Positions 839 to 11,326 of a stretch of DNA of 11,326 nucleotides are shown here, one piece after another. The notes beneath the pieces are model-generated. The model searched no databases and was not told the DNA's origin. It saw only the letters and a list, made by a program, of their open reading frames with translations. The position numbers and the translations under genes were made by a program. The stretch's first letter is position 1, and each line of letters starts with the position of its first letter. Source of the stretch: a virus (Duplodnaviria > Heunggongvirae > Uroviricota > Caudoviricetes); the IMG/VR virus record IMGVR_UViG_2534681774_000020, positions 1-11,326 of that record. One strand, 5' to 3'.

Positions 839-1867
839 ATGAGTGAATTAATTATCTCTGGCAGTTCCGGTGGTTTTCTGCGCAACATTGGCAAAGAGTA
901 CCAGGAAGCCGCAGAAAACTTTATGCGGTTCATGAATGACCAGGGAGCTTATGCGCCGAATACTCTGCGCGACCTCCGTTTGGTGTTTCATTCCTGGGCG
1001 CGCTGGTGTCACGCTCGCCAGCTTGCCTGGTTTCCGATCTCACCAGAAATGGCCCGCGAGTATTTTCTTCAGCTGCATGATGCCGATCTGGCTTCGACCA
1101 CCATTGATAAGCACTACGCCATGCTGAACATGCTGCTTTCGCATTGTGGCCTTCCGCCACTTTCGGATGATAAAAGTGTTTCTCTGGCTATGCGGCGCAT
1201 CCGGCGCGAAGCGGCAACTGAAAAAGGCGAACGAACAGGCCAGGCTATACCGCTGCGGTGGGACGATCTGAAACTGCTCGACGTCCTGTTGTCCAGGTCA
1301 GAACGGCTGGTGGACCTGCGCAACCGGGCTTTTCTCTTTGTTGCATACAATACGCTGATGCGTATGTCGGAAATCTCGCGTATTCGTGTAGGAGATCTGG
1401 ACCAAACAGGTGACACTGTCACGCTACATATTTCACACACGAAGACAATAACGACCGCCGCCGGGCTTGATAAGGTGCTTTCCCGTCGCACTACCGCTGT
1501 GCTGAATGACTGGCTGGATGTTTCCGGGCTTCGCGAACATCCTGACGCAGTGCTGTTCCCGCCGATACACCGTAGCAATAAGGCCAGGATCACGACAACG
1601 CCCCTTACTGCACCTGCAATGGAGAAAATATTCAGCGACGCCTGGGTGTTGCTGAATAAAAGAGATGCTACGCCAAACAAAGGAAGATACCGGACGTGGA
1701 CCGGGCATAGTGCACGCGTCGGGGCCGCTATTGATATGGCTGAAAAGCAGGTGTCTATGGTGGAGATCATGCAGGAAGGAACCTGGAAGAAACCGGAAAC
1801 ACTTATGCGGTATCTTCGCCGTGGCGGCGTGTCTGTGGGGGCTAATAGCCGCCTGATGGATTCGTAA
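839..1867 (+). CDS. dre: Cre-family tyrosine site-specific recombinase, recognised as Dre (D6-type, rox-specific)
   Basis: 342-aa ORF whose N-terminus (MSELIISGSSGGFLRNIGKEYQEAAENFMRFMNDQGAYAPNTL) matches Dre as I remember it. Alignable to P1 Cre along its length (e.g. LAFLFVAYNTLMRMSEISRIRVGDL vs Cre LAFLGIAYNTLLRIAEIARIRVKDI; WTGHSARVGAAIDMA vs WSGHSARVGAARDMA). Exact rox site upstream. Confidence 0.95.
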   Translation: MSELIISGSSGGFLRNIGKEYQEAAENFMRFMNDQGAYAPNTLRDLRLVFHSWARWCHARQLAWFPISPEMAREYFLQLHDADLASTTIDKHYAMLNMLLSHCGLPPLSDDKSVSLAMRRIRREAATEKGERTGQAIPLRWDDLKLLDVLLSRSERLVDLRNRAFLFVAYNTLMRMSEISRIRVGDLDQTGDTVTLHISHTKTITTAAGLDKVLSRRTTAVLNDWLDVSGLREHPDAVLFPPIHRSNKARITTTPLTAPAMEKIFSDAWVLLNKRDATPNKGRYRTWTGHSARVGAAIDMAEKQVSMVEIMQEGTWKKPETLMRYLRRGGVSVGANSRLMDS

Positions 1868-1940
1868 ATTAAATTTCTAACACATCTTTTTAGATTAACG
1901 CCTTTGCTGTAAAGTACCCTCGCCTATTTAGGAGGGTGCT

Positions 1941-2285
1941 TTGCAGAGTAAAATCACGGAATCAAGACGCTTCAAGGTGGATGGTTACACCGTAACCTTC
2001 GCCGCTGGTGTTAAGAACAGTCATGCTGTCGTTGTGTTCGGCATCATGACCGGGCTTGAGGCCGTCCCTGTGTTTACCCTCGAAAAAAACTGGCGAAATC
2101 TGGAGGAAGCAGAAAGCTACGTCCGGAAAGTAACCATCATTGCCGCCGAAAAACTCCTGGCCCACTATCAGGAAAATTATCGCACTATGGTCGAGAAGAT
2201 TAATCTCGCTTTCACTCGCCCCACTACCGGCTTTATTGCACCGGATACTAATGCAGGTCGCTATCCTGCAAGGGGGCGTCGGTGA
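1941..2285 (+). CDS. Hypothetical protein, 114 aa, TTG start
   Basis: ORF with a strong Shine-Dalgarno GGAGGG at 1931-1936, 4 nt before the TTG start. First gene of the operon after dre. No recognisable motifs. Confidence 0.55.
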   Translation: MQSKITESRRFKVDGYTVTFAAGVKNSHAVVVFGIMTGLEAVPVFTLEKNWRNLEEAESYVRKVTIIAAEKLLAHYQENYRTMVEKINLAFTRPTTGFIAPDTNAGRYPARGRR

Positions 2286-2758
2286 AGACTTATTACACAT
2301 CTCTGAATTGTTACCCGTCTTCCTATCCAGAATTGTCCGGGAAGCTGTTAGCTCTATTAGCTAAAGCACCTACGGAATGGTTTAAGCCAGTCATTATCAA
2401 TCCACACTTCCTGGATTACGGATCTGTTCGCACTCGTAACGAACTCAAAAACCTACTGGCGCATGGATTCATTCGACACCGTGCCGGGAAAGGCTATCAG
2501 TTAGCGATTGCGCCAGAAGAGGCCGTGCGGCTATTCGCATATCGTGACAGCCAGACAAAAGCTCGGGTAATAGCTCAAATACTTCATAACGGCAGCACCT
2601 ATGCCCGCCAGTTTGGTGGCGACACGTCGCAGTTCTTGCGGGCGGTGCGATCGCTGGAGGAGCAAGGAGTTATTGAAAGTTCCTGTCTTCCTGTTCCTAC
2701 CGTTCCACATATCAAACGTCGGGTTTACACCTTCACGCAGAGAGCTAAAAAACAATGA
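2282..2758 (+). CDS. Hypothetical protein, 158 aa, possible winged-helix DNA-binding fold (inference)
   Basis: GTG start overlaps the upstream stop (GTGA at 2282-2285), with AGGGGG Shine-Dalgarno 5 nt upstream. The C-terminal segment ...SQFLRAVRSLEEQGVIES resembles a recognition helix plus wing. Function inferred only. Confidence 0.6.
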   Translation: MKTYYTSLNCYPSSYPELSGKLLALLAKAPTEWFKPVIINPHFLDYGSVRTRNELKNLLAHGFIRHRAGKGYQLAIAPEEAVRLFAYRDSQTKARVIAQILHNGSTYARQFGGDTSQFLRAVRSLEEQGVIESSCLPVPTVPHIKRRVYTFTQRAKKQ

Positions 2759-3249
2759 TTTACGTAAAAGTGAAACGCCTACATCCGGCAGCAAAACTTC
2801 CAGCTTATGCCACCTCCGGATCGGCGGCGATGGATTTTGAGGCTGTTGAAATAAAACCATGTGTCGATAGCAATGGTGCAATTTCCTCAAGCTGGTGGGT
2901 GTACACCGGACTGGCTATGGAGATCCCGCCCGGCTGGTGTCTAAAACTCTATCCGCGTTCCGGATTGGGCTGCAAAAAACATACTCGCCTGGCTAACTGC
3001 GTAGGAATTATCGACTCCGATTATCGCGGTGAAATCATGGCAAAACTGATTACTGATCCCGGCGGGGAAGGCGTTTGTCTCAAGCCTGGAATGGCTGTCA
3101 TGCAAGGAATTTTTGAGCGTGTTGAACAAGTCTCACTAGTCGAGGTTGAGGAACTCAACGAAACGGAACGTGGTGCCGGTGGCTTTGGTAGCACATCGGA
3201 AGACCGCGTTGAAATCAAGCGTACACCGCTTCAGTACGCAAAGTTTTAA
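2755..3249 (+). CDS. dut: dUTP diphosphatase (trimeric dUTPase)
   Basis: ATGA start/stop overlap with the upstream gene. Canonical dUTPase motifs are present: PRSGLG (motif II), GIIDSDYRGE (motif III), RGAGGFGSTS (motif V), and an AAMDFEA motif-I-like segment. Confidence 0.9.
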   Translation: MIYVKVKRLHPAAKLPAYATSGSAAMDFEAVEIKPCVDSNGAISSSWWVYTGLAMEIPPGWCLKLYPRSGLGCKKHTRLANCVGIIDSDYRGEIMAKLITDPGGEGVCLKPGMAVMQGIFERVEQVSLVEVEELNETERGAGGFGSTSEDRVEIKRTPLQYAKF

Positions 3250-3263
3250 GTAGAGGAAGGATT

Positions 3264-3926
3264 ATGGTCAGCACTTTTCAGGTGTTCCCCAAATACAAAT
3301 GCCACAGCATCATTCGGGCATCGAAAATCAAAGATATTGTTATTGTCGGCAAAGCTTATGCGCCCATTTTTGGCAGTATCGAAGTCGTTGAGCCAAAAGG
3401 AATGACGCTTCGTGTTGATGGTGTGTTCTTGGAAAAATTCCGACCGCAAATAGGAGGATATCTCGTCACTGCTGAAAATGGCTATCTGGTCTATGTGCCA
3501 GAGAAAGCATTTGAAAAATGCTATAGCCGGGTTAACGACGCCTCCGAAAATGGGGTATCGCTCAGCATTGAAGGTCACAATGGGGTGACATTCATTACAG
3601 CCAGGGACGTAACTATTTCTGCTGGCGGTATCGCTACTCTACAAGAAGAAATCGACCTTGAAGCAGCCGACTTTTCTGACGCGCTGATGTGGCTGAAGGA
3701 TGGCAAGAAAGTTGCCCGGCGCGGGTGGAACGGCGAAAACCAATTCTGCTGGCTGGTTCCTGAAGGACAGTACCCGGCACGAATGGAAGCCATTAAGGGA
3801 TATTTCCCCGGCGATCTCGTTCCGTATGGTGCTTATTTCGCCTTAAAAAATGCACAAGGTGTAGTTGTTCCGTGGTTGCCTTCTGTAGGCGACTTACTGG
3901 CATGTGACTGGTTTGTAGTGGAGTGA
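3264..3926 (+). CDS. Two-domain protein, 220 aa: unknown N-terminal domain (about 135 aa) fused to a C-terminal DUF2829 (Tad2-like) domain
   Basis: Strong Shine-Dalgarno (GAGGAAGGA) before the ATG. The C-terminal 85 aa (ALMWLKDGKKVARRGWNGENQFCWLVPEG...VPWLPSVGDLLACDWFVVE) carries the DUF2829 hallmarks as I recall them (GKK..RRGWNG, VPW, DLLA.DW..VE). Domain assignment is from memory. Confidence 0.75.
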   Translation: MVSTFQVFPKYKCHSIIRASKIKDIVIVGKAYAPIFGSIEVVEPKGMTLRVDGVFLEKFRPQIGGYLVTAENGYLVYVPEKAFEKCYSRVNDASENGVSLSIEGHNGVTFITARDVTISAGGIATLQEEIDLEAADFSDALMWLKDGKKVARRGWNGENQFCWLVPEGQYPARMEAIKGYFPGDLVPYGAYFALKNAQGVVVPWLPSVGDLLACDWFVVE

Positions 3927-3932
3927 TTTAAC

Positions 3933-4733
3933 GTGGAAAATACTAAAGCAATTCAATACCGCTTGCGTAATGGCCTGCTGGTGGCTGTTAACGCCGACAT
4001 GTCACTGCCGTTTGACACGATTGAACGTACTATCATGACGTATCTCGGCTTTAATGAAGAGCTGAATGAAGAGCATGGCGTAGCTATATGGAGTGATGCA
4101 GAAAGCGGCGTTCATCGTTACATCACCGCCAGGGGCAAAGACTACTCTCTGGAAGAACTGTTTACCCTTGCACAGTCTTTCGAATGTGTAGCATTAGACA
4201 TGTTTAATGATCCTGCTATAGCGCAACGACTTATACGCGAGCTTGGGCTATCCGTTACACCAATTATCTTTAAGAATGGCAGCCTGACTGGCACATGGCG
4301 CGTAGAACGCATCTCAAACTACCTTCCATATAACCGACAGTTAAATGGAGTAATCTCCGGCGTTAATCAGCCCGTAGCGTGTGAAAATGTAAACCTGGTT
4401 GCCGCTGTTTTGGCAACCGCATGTCGTGTTATCGGTTTGGCTAAACAGGCATTTATTCATTTCCCAAATGGTGCAGAAGGTAGCGCAGAGATTATCGCGT
4501 GTGATTTCGAATTTACCTGGATGCTACGCGAATATCTGGACCAAACAGTATTCCGTGCCGAAGAACTGGATATGTATATCACGTCAACGATTCCAGACGA
4601 TGTGCGAGCTGAAGCAATCGCTACAGCCAGGGCGAAATGCCGTGCGGCGATTGCAGAGCAGGCCAAAGAAGAACCGTCCGATGAAGCCGTGGCTGATGTT
4701 GAAGCAGAGGTAGCGGAGGATGCTGACGCCTAA
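3933..4733 (+). CDS. Hypothetical protein, 266 aa, with a poly-acidic C-terminal tail (EEPSDEAVADVEAEVAEDADA)
   Basis: GTG start 7 nt after the upstream stop, with GGAG 9 nt upstream. Last gene of the plus-strand cargo operon, followed by an intrinsic terminator. No recognisable catalytic motifs. Confidence 0.7.
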   Translation: MENTKAIQYRLRNGLLVAVNADMSLPFDTIERTIMTYLGFNEELNEEHGVAIWSDAESGVHRYITARGKDYSLEELFTLAQSFECVALDMFNDPAIAQRLIRELGLSVTPIIFKNGSLTGTWRVERISNYLPYNRQLNGVISGVNQPVACENVNLVAAVLATACRVIGLAKQAFIHFPNGAEGSAEIIACDFEFTWMLREYLDQTVFRAEELDMYITSTIPDDVRAEAIATARAKCRAAIAEQAKEEPSDEAVADVEAEVAEDADA

Positions 4734-4788
4734 AAACATCACCGAATTAGCTGGCTGACAGCAGAAAAAATCATTGAGTGATAGTAGG

Positions 4789-4818
4789 AAGCCCGCCTGG
4801 TTGAGCGGGCTTCTTTTC
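4789..4818. terminator. Rho-independent terminator (8-bp GC-rich stem AAGCCCGC/GCGGGCTT, 8-nt loop, then CTTTTC) between the convergent cargo operon and doc
   Basis: Hairpin and T-tract read directly. Positioned 56 bp after the stop of the 266-aa gene and overlapping the doc stop codon. The T-run is short, so it is probably stronger for the plus-strand transcript. Confidence 0.55.
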
Positions 4819-5197
4819 AAATATTGGAACCAAATAATTCACGTAGTTTTTCCGCTACTGAAGATACGGGGATTTCACCAGTTGCGGCCCCCACCGCAAG
4901 TTCCACCAGCACGGGAGAATCATATACCTGTATACCGTTACGGCGTAGAAATAGCAGCGCACTGTTTAGCGCGGTACGCTTATTGGCATCATTGAATATA
5001 TGCCCTCTCGCAGTAGCCACCAGGTAGGTTGCGGAGACTTCGAAAAGGTCGGTAATCTCTTCGTACACAACTCTGGCCTGGACTCTCCCGATAATGGCCT
5101 CTGCCCTGCCCGGATCTGACATGCCAGGCAGGCCGCCGTAGCGGTTTATATTCGCATCATGAAGCGCAATAAGTTCTTCCGGTGATATATGCCTCAT
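4817..5197 (-). CDS. doc: Doc toxin (death on curing; Fic-family protein) of the P1-type phd-doc addiction module
   Basis: 126-aa ORF that matches P1 Doc as I recall it ([22 protein letters not shown]...). Its ATG overlaps the phd stop by 1 nt (TAATG), as in P1. Confidence 0.95.
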
Positions 5198-5418: not shown

Positions 5419-5426
5419 AAACACCT

Positions 5427-5450
5427 CGTGTACTCGTTATGTGTACACAA
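5427..5450. promoter_or_regulatory. phd-doc operator: two Phd-binding palindromes (GTGTACTC imperfect at 5428-5435, TGTGTACACA perfect at 5440-5449) just upstream of phd
   Basis: Palindromes read directly. They match the GTGTACAC-type subsites described for the P1 phd-doc autoregulated promoter (established knowledge, recalled from the literature). Confidence 0.6.
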
Positions 5451-5490
5451 CTATAAACTTCACAGGCATAAAGCACCAGCACTTTGCAGC

Positions 5491-6003: not shown

Positions 6004-6255
6004 TTATTTTTTTGGTGCATCCTCGTTCTGATACACCGGATCGCTCCCTTTTGGCAACTGGAGGCTTAACTGCCGGTAGTGCCGTAGCCGTTCCATGAAA
6101 TAGGCGCGCAGGTTTTCCGGTTGCTCACGGGCCACCTGCTCTGCAATCACAGGTATATTCAGCCGTTCTTTGTAAGCAACGCCGCTGGCGGCAAGGTCTA
6201 CGTTCACCTTGTCTCGCTCTTCCTGGCTTTTAGCTGCTATATTTCGATCTGACAC
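6004..6255 (-). CDS. Hypothetical protein, 83 aa (GTG start), function unknown
   Basis: ORF with a GGAGG Shine-Dalgarno 6 nt upstream of the GTG start. Hydrophilic, protein-like composition. Sits immediately upstream of the humD promoter region. Not recognised. Confidence 0.55.

Positions 6256-10384: not shown

Positions 10385-11326
<942 letters not shown>

Follow-up and report, generated by a model that had tools for sequence, protein, structure and literature searches.

Why does a phage-plasmid encode a protein in which a Tad2 (DUF2829) domain is preceded by some 135 residues of other sequence, and what does each half contribute? Sponges that sequester immune signals are a main phage route against Thoeris, CBASS, and Pycsar, and the families recognized as of April 2026 number only about seven (Tad1, Tad2, Acb2, Acb4, Sequestin, Lockin, and TadIV-1), with no OB-fold among them; nor did we find an OB-fold sponge in the literature searched. 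An answer would bear on how P1/D6 phage-plasmids, which pathogenic E. coli, Shigella, and Salmonella commonly carry, persist in defended hosts. The gene lies in the window, by which we mean the whole stretch of 11,326 nucleotides analyzed here. The original prediction had drawn its reading frame (3264–3926, plus strand, 220 residues) exactly as we find it and had proposed an immune-signal sponge. We posit that the gene encodes a MoTad2-like signal sponge that carries, in the window copy, a Dec-type barrel as an accessory, a reading that we consider probable. The features concerned are the following.

3253–3260, plus strand: SD-like sequence GAGGAAGG, read from the sequence, 3 nt 5' of the ATG and right behind the stop codon of the dUTPase gene (3247–3249)
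3264–3926, plus strand: complete coding sequence of 220 residues, comprising a Dec-type barrel, a linker, and a Tad2 domain
3282–3548, plus strand: N-module, residues 7–95, a Dec-type OB-fold small β-barrel of a divergent, D6-type variant
3549–3668, plus strand: β-rich linker, residues 96–135, which ends in the conserved junction EEIDLEAA and sits at the position of the C-terminal spike of Dec
3669–3923, plus strand: Tad2/DUF2829 domain, residues 136–220, MoTad2-like, identified by PF11195, AF2, Foldseek, and pocket residues

Genetic context of the gene

The phage-plasmid setting originally proposed is borne out, and the element can be named: the window belongs to a D6-like (P1-family) E. coli phage-plasmid, sharing 97.8% identity with phage D6 and 99.3% with many E. 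coli plasmids of ~90 kb. On these plasmids the gene is labeled "DUF2829 domain-containing protein", the label also borne by near-identical 220-residue proteins that group into clusters as large as 197 members. The genes follow one another in the order cre-like recombinase, two unknown ORFs, dut, the Tad2 gene, and an isaA-like gene, and then doc/phd, humD, and hot (opposite strand); the flanking hypothetical genes have no match in Pfam (E ≤ 10) or NCBIfam. The upstream gene does encode a dUTPase (dut; PF00692, E = 1.7e-14), as predicted, and its adjacency to the Tad2 gene shows no sign of functional linkage. No σ70-like promoter for the 220-residue gene was found within 1800–5000, which is consistent with co-transcription of the Tad2 gene with upstream genes. 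Its context is early/accessory rather than structural: P1-like phages have the gene directly after ssb, which in P1 bears a C1 operator, and before isaA, and in Lastaviruses the fusion gene comes after divergent regulator genes.

Phage P1 (NC_005856) lacks a Tad2 gene, and its IsaA is a homolog of the product encoded downstream of that gene in the window; the Tad2 gene has the look of a cassette that was gained or lost at the junction of ssb and isaA. P1 served as the Pycsar-sensitive tester phage in a sponge study (10.1101/2025.08.24.671296, Fig. S2 legend), and this sensitivity fits its absent Tad2 gene. Residues 60–320 of P1 IsaA (L004, 4570–5532) share 47% identity with the product of the window's downstream gene (3933–4733). 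The annotated P1 IsaA and SJ46 J46_0048 (L002, 3791–4636) begin with the same leader of ~55 residues, FHEKNTPRYC.RWWENIPDPPEGAIHQ, so their annotated starts are probably too far upstream.

Compared with phage D6, the window apparently lacks the pdcA-like orf112 (isaA-like/doc gap, 4734–4816) and orf109 (phd/humD gap, 5425–5490). Its hot gene (6004–6255, minus strand), which encodes a homolog of DNA polymerase III θ (PF06440, E = 3e-33), has a product of 83 residues versus 48 in the D6 record. The right end of the window holds a 260-residue ORF (10444–11226, minus strand) that resembles an IS21-family IstB ATPase helper by a Walker-type sequence recognized by eye, which points to an IS insertion in the phage-plasmid.

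The Tad2 domain and its predicted ligands

The assignment of the C-terminal 85 residues to DUF2829 holds by profile, sequence, and structure, with scores that chance would not produce. PF11195 (Tad2-like) covers residues 136–219 with E = 2.1e-22 (79.9 bits versus a Pfam cut-off of 25). The best PDB sequence matches, which run end to end with one 1-residue gap, are ModTad2/MoTad2 entries 9EIB (8e-20/8e-21) and 8V3E (E ~1e-20), followed by HgmTad2/AcrIIA7 (8KBI, 9KZR), SptTad2, and SPO1 Tad2. AF2 models the domain, a helix α1 and an antiparallel sheet with α2/α3 loops, at a pLDDT of 93–96, and all 24 Foldseek matches at E ≤ 1e-3 are Tad2 structures, with 9EIB (ModTad2 bound to His-ADPR) on top (46% identity, TMt 0.79, E = 2e-9). 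An N-terminal extension is accommodated in the solved AcrIIA7 structure 9KZR, where the Tad2 part spans residues 46–150.

To assess the pocket, the contacts that HgmTad2 makes with gcADPR (W21, N22, G23, M76, A78, V84, W87, L88, S90, T92, and D93; 10.1101/2023.11.15.567273) were transferred via the PDB sequence alignment. Eight of the 11 are identical in the window protein (W155, N156, G157, V202, W204, L205, S207, and D210, equivalent to HgmTad2 W21, N22, G23, V84, W87, L88, S90, and D93), one is conservatively replaced (M76 by L194), and two are changed (A78 to N196 and T92 to G209). The β2–β5 insertion (residues 166–190) has ~25 residues versus 41 in HgmTad2 and 35–41 in the subclass that binds cyclic dinucleotides. 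Among the cyclic-dinucleotide contacts of HgmTad2, R31 and D34 are replaced by V165 and G168, K46, S47, and N85 have no counterpart, and F70 alone finds a similar residue, Y188. With an insertion that is too short and key residues absent, HgmTad2-type binding of cyclic dinucleotides (cGG/cGAMP) appears unlikely. The sponge proposal thus stands in part: a genuine Tad2 domain with a largely preserved ADPR-type pocket makes the protein a reasonable candidate for sequestering signals of that type.

Phage-plasmids carry three types of allele of the central insertion (window 3759–3833, residues ~166–190), namely EGQYPARMEAIKGYFPGD, AGSVNLHGI, and DKQGASRLTPIKHAANGELEINFDSP. The same region forms a second (CDN/cNMP) pocket in other Tad2 proteins, and the three alleles suggest a diversification of specificity. 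We found no match to experimentally tested Tad2 homologs: an exact-pattern genome scan came back empty, and the Tatumella homolog is absent among the best 80 Tad2-profile loci.

The MoTad2 clade blocks type II Thoeris through binding of His-ADPR; cUMP and cCMP are further ligands of MoTad2, which thereby inhibits Pycsar but does not inhibit type I Thoeris. Specificities vary greatly across the Tad2 family, so that any ligand named for the window protein is uncertain. From homology, we infer an anti-defense protein of a D6-like phage-plasmid whose activity would be located in the C-terminal MoTad2-like domain; this domain would form a tetramer that sequesters TIR-derived ADP-ribose-type signals (His-ADPR or cADPR isomers) and may sequester cyclic mononucleotides (cCMP/cUMP) too. 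Upon entry or induction of the element, Thoeris-type and perhaps Pycsar-type abortive-infection signaling would be blunted.

An AcrIIA7-like anti-CRISPR function, or another non-sponge activity of the DUF2829 domain, strikes us as extremely improbable: AcrIIA7 belongs to the DUF2829 proteins and is one of the PDB matches (8KBI, 9KZR), but the nearest solved homolog is MoTad2. Type II-A CRISPR-Cas is not known from E. coli, which also counts against this function. DUF2829 proteins have, moreover, been reinterpreted in the literature as signal sponges.

The N-terminal module and its partners

The N-terminal ~135 residues, in which no motif could originally be placed, consist of a Dec-type OB-fold module and a β-rich linker. 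Pfam (E ≤ 10) and NCBIfam return nothing for the module. A single-sequence phmmer search aligns residues 57–98 with phage L Dec (PDB 6E3C, E ~1e-3), and when the module profile is compared with all PDB sequences, Dec is the sole match; residues 7–95 contain an OB-fold homologous to that of Dec. The module matches phrog_11049 at E = 6.5e-37 and belongs to a family (PHROG 11049/872) that comprises 1031 clusters (50% identity) at E ≤ 1e-3 in a deep HMMER search with residues 1–100 as the query. Members mostly have 85–320 residues with the module at the N terminus; those that stand alone are phage proteins of 85–110 residues.

Two other identities for the module were considered and rejected. Lockin, TadIV-1, or another solved sponge is at odds with a profile that matches only Dec in the PDB; Lockin is a hexameric cog reported absent from INPHARED phages, and TadIV-1 is an unrelated two-helix protein. 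The module is not the capsid cement protein of GP4 either, which is gp1 (157 residues, Ig-like); the module protein of this phage is a separate 91-residue ORF beside a CsrA-like gene. Two giant Ig/cadherin-repeat proteins, P0058 (2543 residues) and P0071 (1177 residues), each show 9–10 partial matches to the module, which may come from a common GGY..Y.DGY-like strand motif and not from genuine homology. In BFVD, A0A384WK77 of Vibrio phage vB_VpaS_KF6 (394 residues), labeled "putative MazG pyrophosphatase", has an N-module-like fold (Foldseek E = 3e-4), and in related Vibrio phages a Tad2-like sequence is misannotated as methionyl-tRNA synthetase.

The family is defined by the motif LPxYxCHKxVxAxKI...KHxPxxGGYxVxYEDGYxSYSPAxAFExGY. 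In an alignment of 142 members to which the window copy, further copies, and Dec were added, the window copy retains 20 of the 29 positions conserved at ≥75% in the family, and its D6-type module is changed at seven near-invariant ones (K15S, H59F, Y70A, D72N, S76V, S78V, and G86C). Dec deviates likewise at these positions from 59 onward, position 15 not being comparable since the N terminus of Dec is not aligned; the SJ46-type, SopranoGao, LASTA, and GP4 copies keep K15, H59, Y70, D72, S76, S78, and G86. Judging from conservation, the residues common to the family and Dec (P61, GGY, G73, AFE, and Y87) look structural, and the family-specific polar/aromatic set looks functional. This set overlaps capsid-contact site 2 of Dec, whose Y71 and E73 align with D72 and Y74 of the family. 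In the D6-type copy, the conserved polar/aromatic face carries hydrophobic replacements.

The kinship with Dec invites the idea that the N-module and linker trimerize on the D6 capsid, as phage L Dec does on its own, and display DUF2829 on the virion surface. Dec is the only solved relative of the module; the N-module and linker together (135 residues) are co-linear with Dec (134 residues, OB-fold and C-terminal spike) and equal to it in length; and the window copy shares the departures of Dec from the family, F59 for example. The linker is β-rich with a pLDDT of <50 when modeled by AF2 as a monomer, and the Dec spike, a three-stranded β-helix in the trimer, is unfolded in the monomer too. Yet the resemblance of the linker to the LSTARTITLTG repeat/spike of Dec is weak and suggestive at most, the Dec site-1 residues map to a stretch that varies across the family, and the capsid cement of GP4 is another protein. 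The gene, moreover, lies in early/accessory regions away from head genes, the recurrent partners of the module are cytoplasmic sponges, and both P1 and D6 are viable phages that lack the module. We therefore regard capsid decoration as very improbable and retain the MoTad2-like sponge with an accessory barrel as the preferred reading.

Those partners were counted in 147 module representatives picked without reference to Tad2, of which 68 are standalone and 79 have an extension of at least 45 residues. Only Sequestin/PF21825 (8) and Tad2 (7–8) recur, always C-terminal of the module; 64 other extensions are singletons, and one representative bears an Acb2/Tad1 hairpin domain. With 7,492 Tad2 homologs reported among ~32 million phage proteins, the enrichment amounts to roughly two orders of magnitude, a rough figure because the datasets differ. 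Sister Lastaviruses have swapped partners at one shared early locus (SopranoGao gp55, module+Tad2; LASTA gp52, module+X+Sequestin). A compact relative of ~65 residues, with the motif YIGTKxVxAxPM...GYLVxYxDGYxSWSPKxVFExAY and a weak Pfam similarity to Tudor_5, lies directly before Tad2 in 15 of the best 80 loci from a Tad2-profile scan of species genomes; it is homologous to the long form across the β4-β5-α2 core (hhalign, 98% probability, E = 7e-14). Neighboring genes of a Eubacterium locus (L127; 1196–1864 and 2282–2755) encode compact-module+Sequestin and compact-module+Tad2, and a single reading frame in a Verrucomicrobia MAG (L148; 1910–2791) encodes compact-module+Acb4(PF13876)+Tad2. By these domain assignments, the module superfamily is joined to four unrelated sponge families (Tad2, Sequestin, Acb4, and Acb2/Tad1). 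Near module genes themselves, neither capsid nor anti-defense families are enriched (50 deduplicated viral loci, 149 neighboring ORFs), so that these neighborhoods are uninformative.

Such partnerships raise the possibility of a bifunctional sponge in which the N-module binds a second immune signal, so that one protein blocks two pathways, as in Tad2-Acb4 and Tad2-Sequestin. The original prediction had offered a second ligand-binding module or a targeting domain as alternatives for the N terminus, and at the level of the family the recurrent fusion to four sponge families strengthens the notion that it could be either. The restriction of recurrent partners to Sequestin and Tad2 in an unbiased sample, the Acb2/Tad1-hairpin fusion, the compact-form fusions to Tad2, Sequestin, and Acb4+Tad2, and the partner swap between SopranoGao and LASTA all speak for bifunctionality. 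So do the standalone members, which resemble known sponges in size, and the invariant face, which is rich in Tyr, His, Lys, Ser, and Asp and overlaps the binding face of Dec. The same fusion logic underlies the discovery of Sequestin, which was found via its fusion to known sponges in a screen of Pfam families only (Tal et al., 10.1101/2025.07.12.664507) and hence one to which the Pfam-less N-module was invisible. Against bifunctionality, the window copy lacks seven near-invariant residues, the module is deleted in phage D6, and the loci around standalone members show no anti-defense enrichment. For the window copy we judge a second signal-binding site unlikely; for canonical copies, its chances are higher.

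Natural alleles, the role of the module, and related systems

Natural variation within the gene bears on what the module does in the proposed sponge. The phage D6 reference protein (L001, 2594–3034) has 146 residues; an in-frame deletion of ~79 residues removes the N-module core and leaves the linker and Tad2 intact. Other truncated module variants are P0036, P0052, and P0054. Around a conserved EIDLEAADFSDALMWLK junction, the alleles are assorted from no fewer than two types of module, two of linker, and three of the Tad2 central loop, and a comparison of the window with SJ46 gives ~99% identity for the linker and Tad2 versus ~60% for the module. Sister phage-plasmids of ~90 kb have Tad2-Sequestin alleles whose Tad2 part is ~82–84% identical to that of the window.

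In a 90.7-kb Logan contig from SRR7894888 (L005, 5001–5576), a Tad2-Sequestin fusion of 191 residues is encoded downstream of the cre-like gene, surrounded by wholly different accessory genes (NinX, RecA-dependent nuclease, and HigB/HTH). The RCS47 copy (L003, 3962–4427) is broken by IS26 at approximately residue 147, at the start of the Tad2 domain, and is annotated as a pseudogene.

The replacement of the polar/aromatic face by hydrophobic residues and the natural in-frame deletions lead us to infer that the module of the window copy would act as an accessory (in tethering, oligomerization, or partner binding) that is not needed for sponge activity, and to regard it as probably dispensable. 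In this architecture, a Dec-type OB-fold barrel on a β-rich tether of ~40 residues, from a module family that phages appear to have repeatedly put N-terminal to sponges, would precede the Tad2 domain. N+linker+Tad2 is, in turn, the dominant architecture in Enterobacterales phage-plasmids (clusters with 197, 453, and 389 members), which argues for selection on the module and not mere decay. A Dec-like stalk may be trimeric, and its fit with a tetrameric Tad2 may weigh against the preferred reading.

How new is this arrangement? The fused sponge had been singled out as unusual, a view that we do not share: a 2025 survey reports Tad2 in 93% of phage-plasmids of the D6-like type and 56% of those of the P1-like type, Tad2-Acb4 and Tad2-Sequestin are published, and Sorek-lab methods mention sponge proteins with a "6E3C" (Dec) domain, which shows that Dec-like fusions have been noticed and not reported on. 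The occurrence of Tad2 in such phage-plasmids and the theme of fused sponges are thus already known; the identity of the N-module, its breadth, and its sponge-restricted partnerships are undescribed as far as the searched literature shows. We raise tentatively, as a possible if doubtful extension, that the Dec-type barrel and its compact ~65-residue relative form a family, as yet unnamed and absent from Pfam, whose domains bind immune signals or potentiate sponges; phages would use its members on their own or on the N-terminal side of Tad2, Sequestin, Acb4, and Acb2/Tad1, and phage L Dec may be a capsid-binding offshoot of the fold. The module possibly is an overlooked piece of the phage counter-defense toolkit: it shows the discovery signature of Sequestin more broadly (four partner families, a partner swap at one locus, and plentiful standalone forms), it is without a database model, and its sole solved relative is a capsid-decoration protein. 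Work on it could reveal (i) a new anti-defense module or (ii) how sponges are scaffolded; if the module is inert, the gene is one more Tad2 homolog.

Among known systems, the closest to the window protein is MoTad2/ModTad2 from a Myroides odoratus prophage (8V3E, 9EIB), which has the same Tad2 fold, 46% identity over the whole domain, an insertion whose length agrees within one residue, and the GWNG and P-S-V-x-D pocket motifs in common. MoTad2, however, is a standalone protein of 89 residues, whereas the window protein adds an N-terminal extension of 135 residues and its ligand is predicted only. HgmTad2/AcrIIA7 and SptTad2 (8KBI-8KBM, 8WJD) share the gcADPR pocket (8/11 residues identical, one conservative) and differ in the insertion (41 residues, as opposed to ~25 in the window protein) and in the R31, D34, K46, S47, and N85 contacts, which in the window protein are absent or replaced. 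Phage L Dec (6E3C), the relative of the N-terminal half, is a late virion-surface trimer without a Tad2 domain and lacks the invariant H-K...K-H...Y-x-D-G-Y-x-S-x-S-P set of the canonical N-module family. Tad2-Acb4 and Tad2-Sequestin (Tal et al., 10.1101/2025.07.12.664507) resemble the window protein in that a single polypeptide unites Tad2 with another small phage domain; the partner in the window is, in contrast to theirs, a Pfam-less Dec-type barrel and not a verified sponge, and whereas the Tad2-Sequestin alleles of phage-plasmids put Tad2 first, in the window protein the partner domain lies N-terminal to Tad2.
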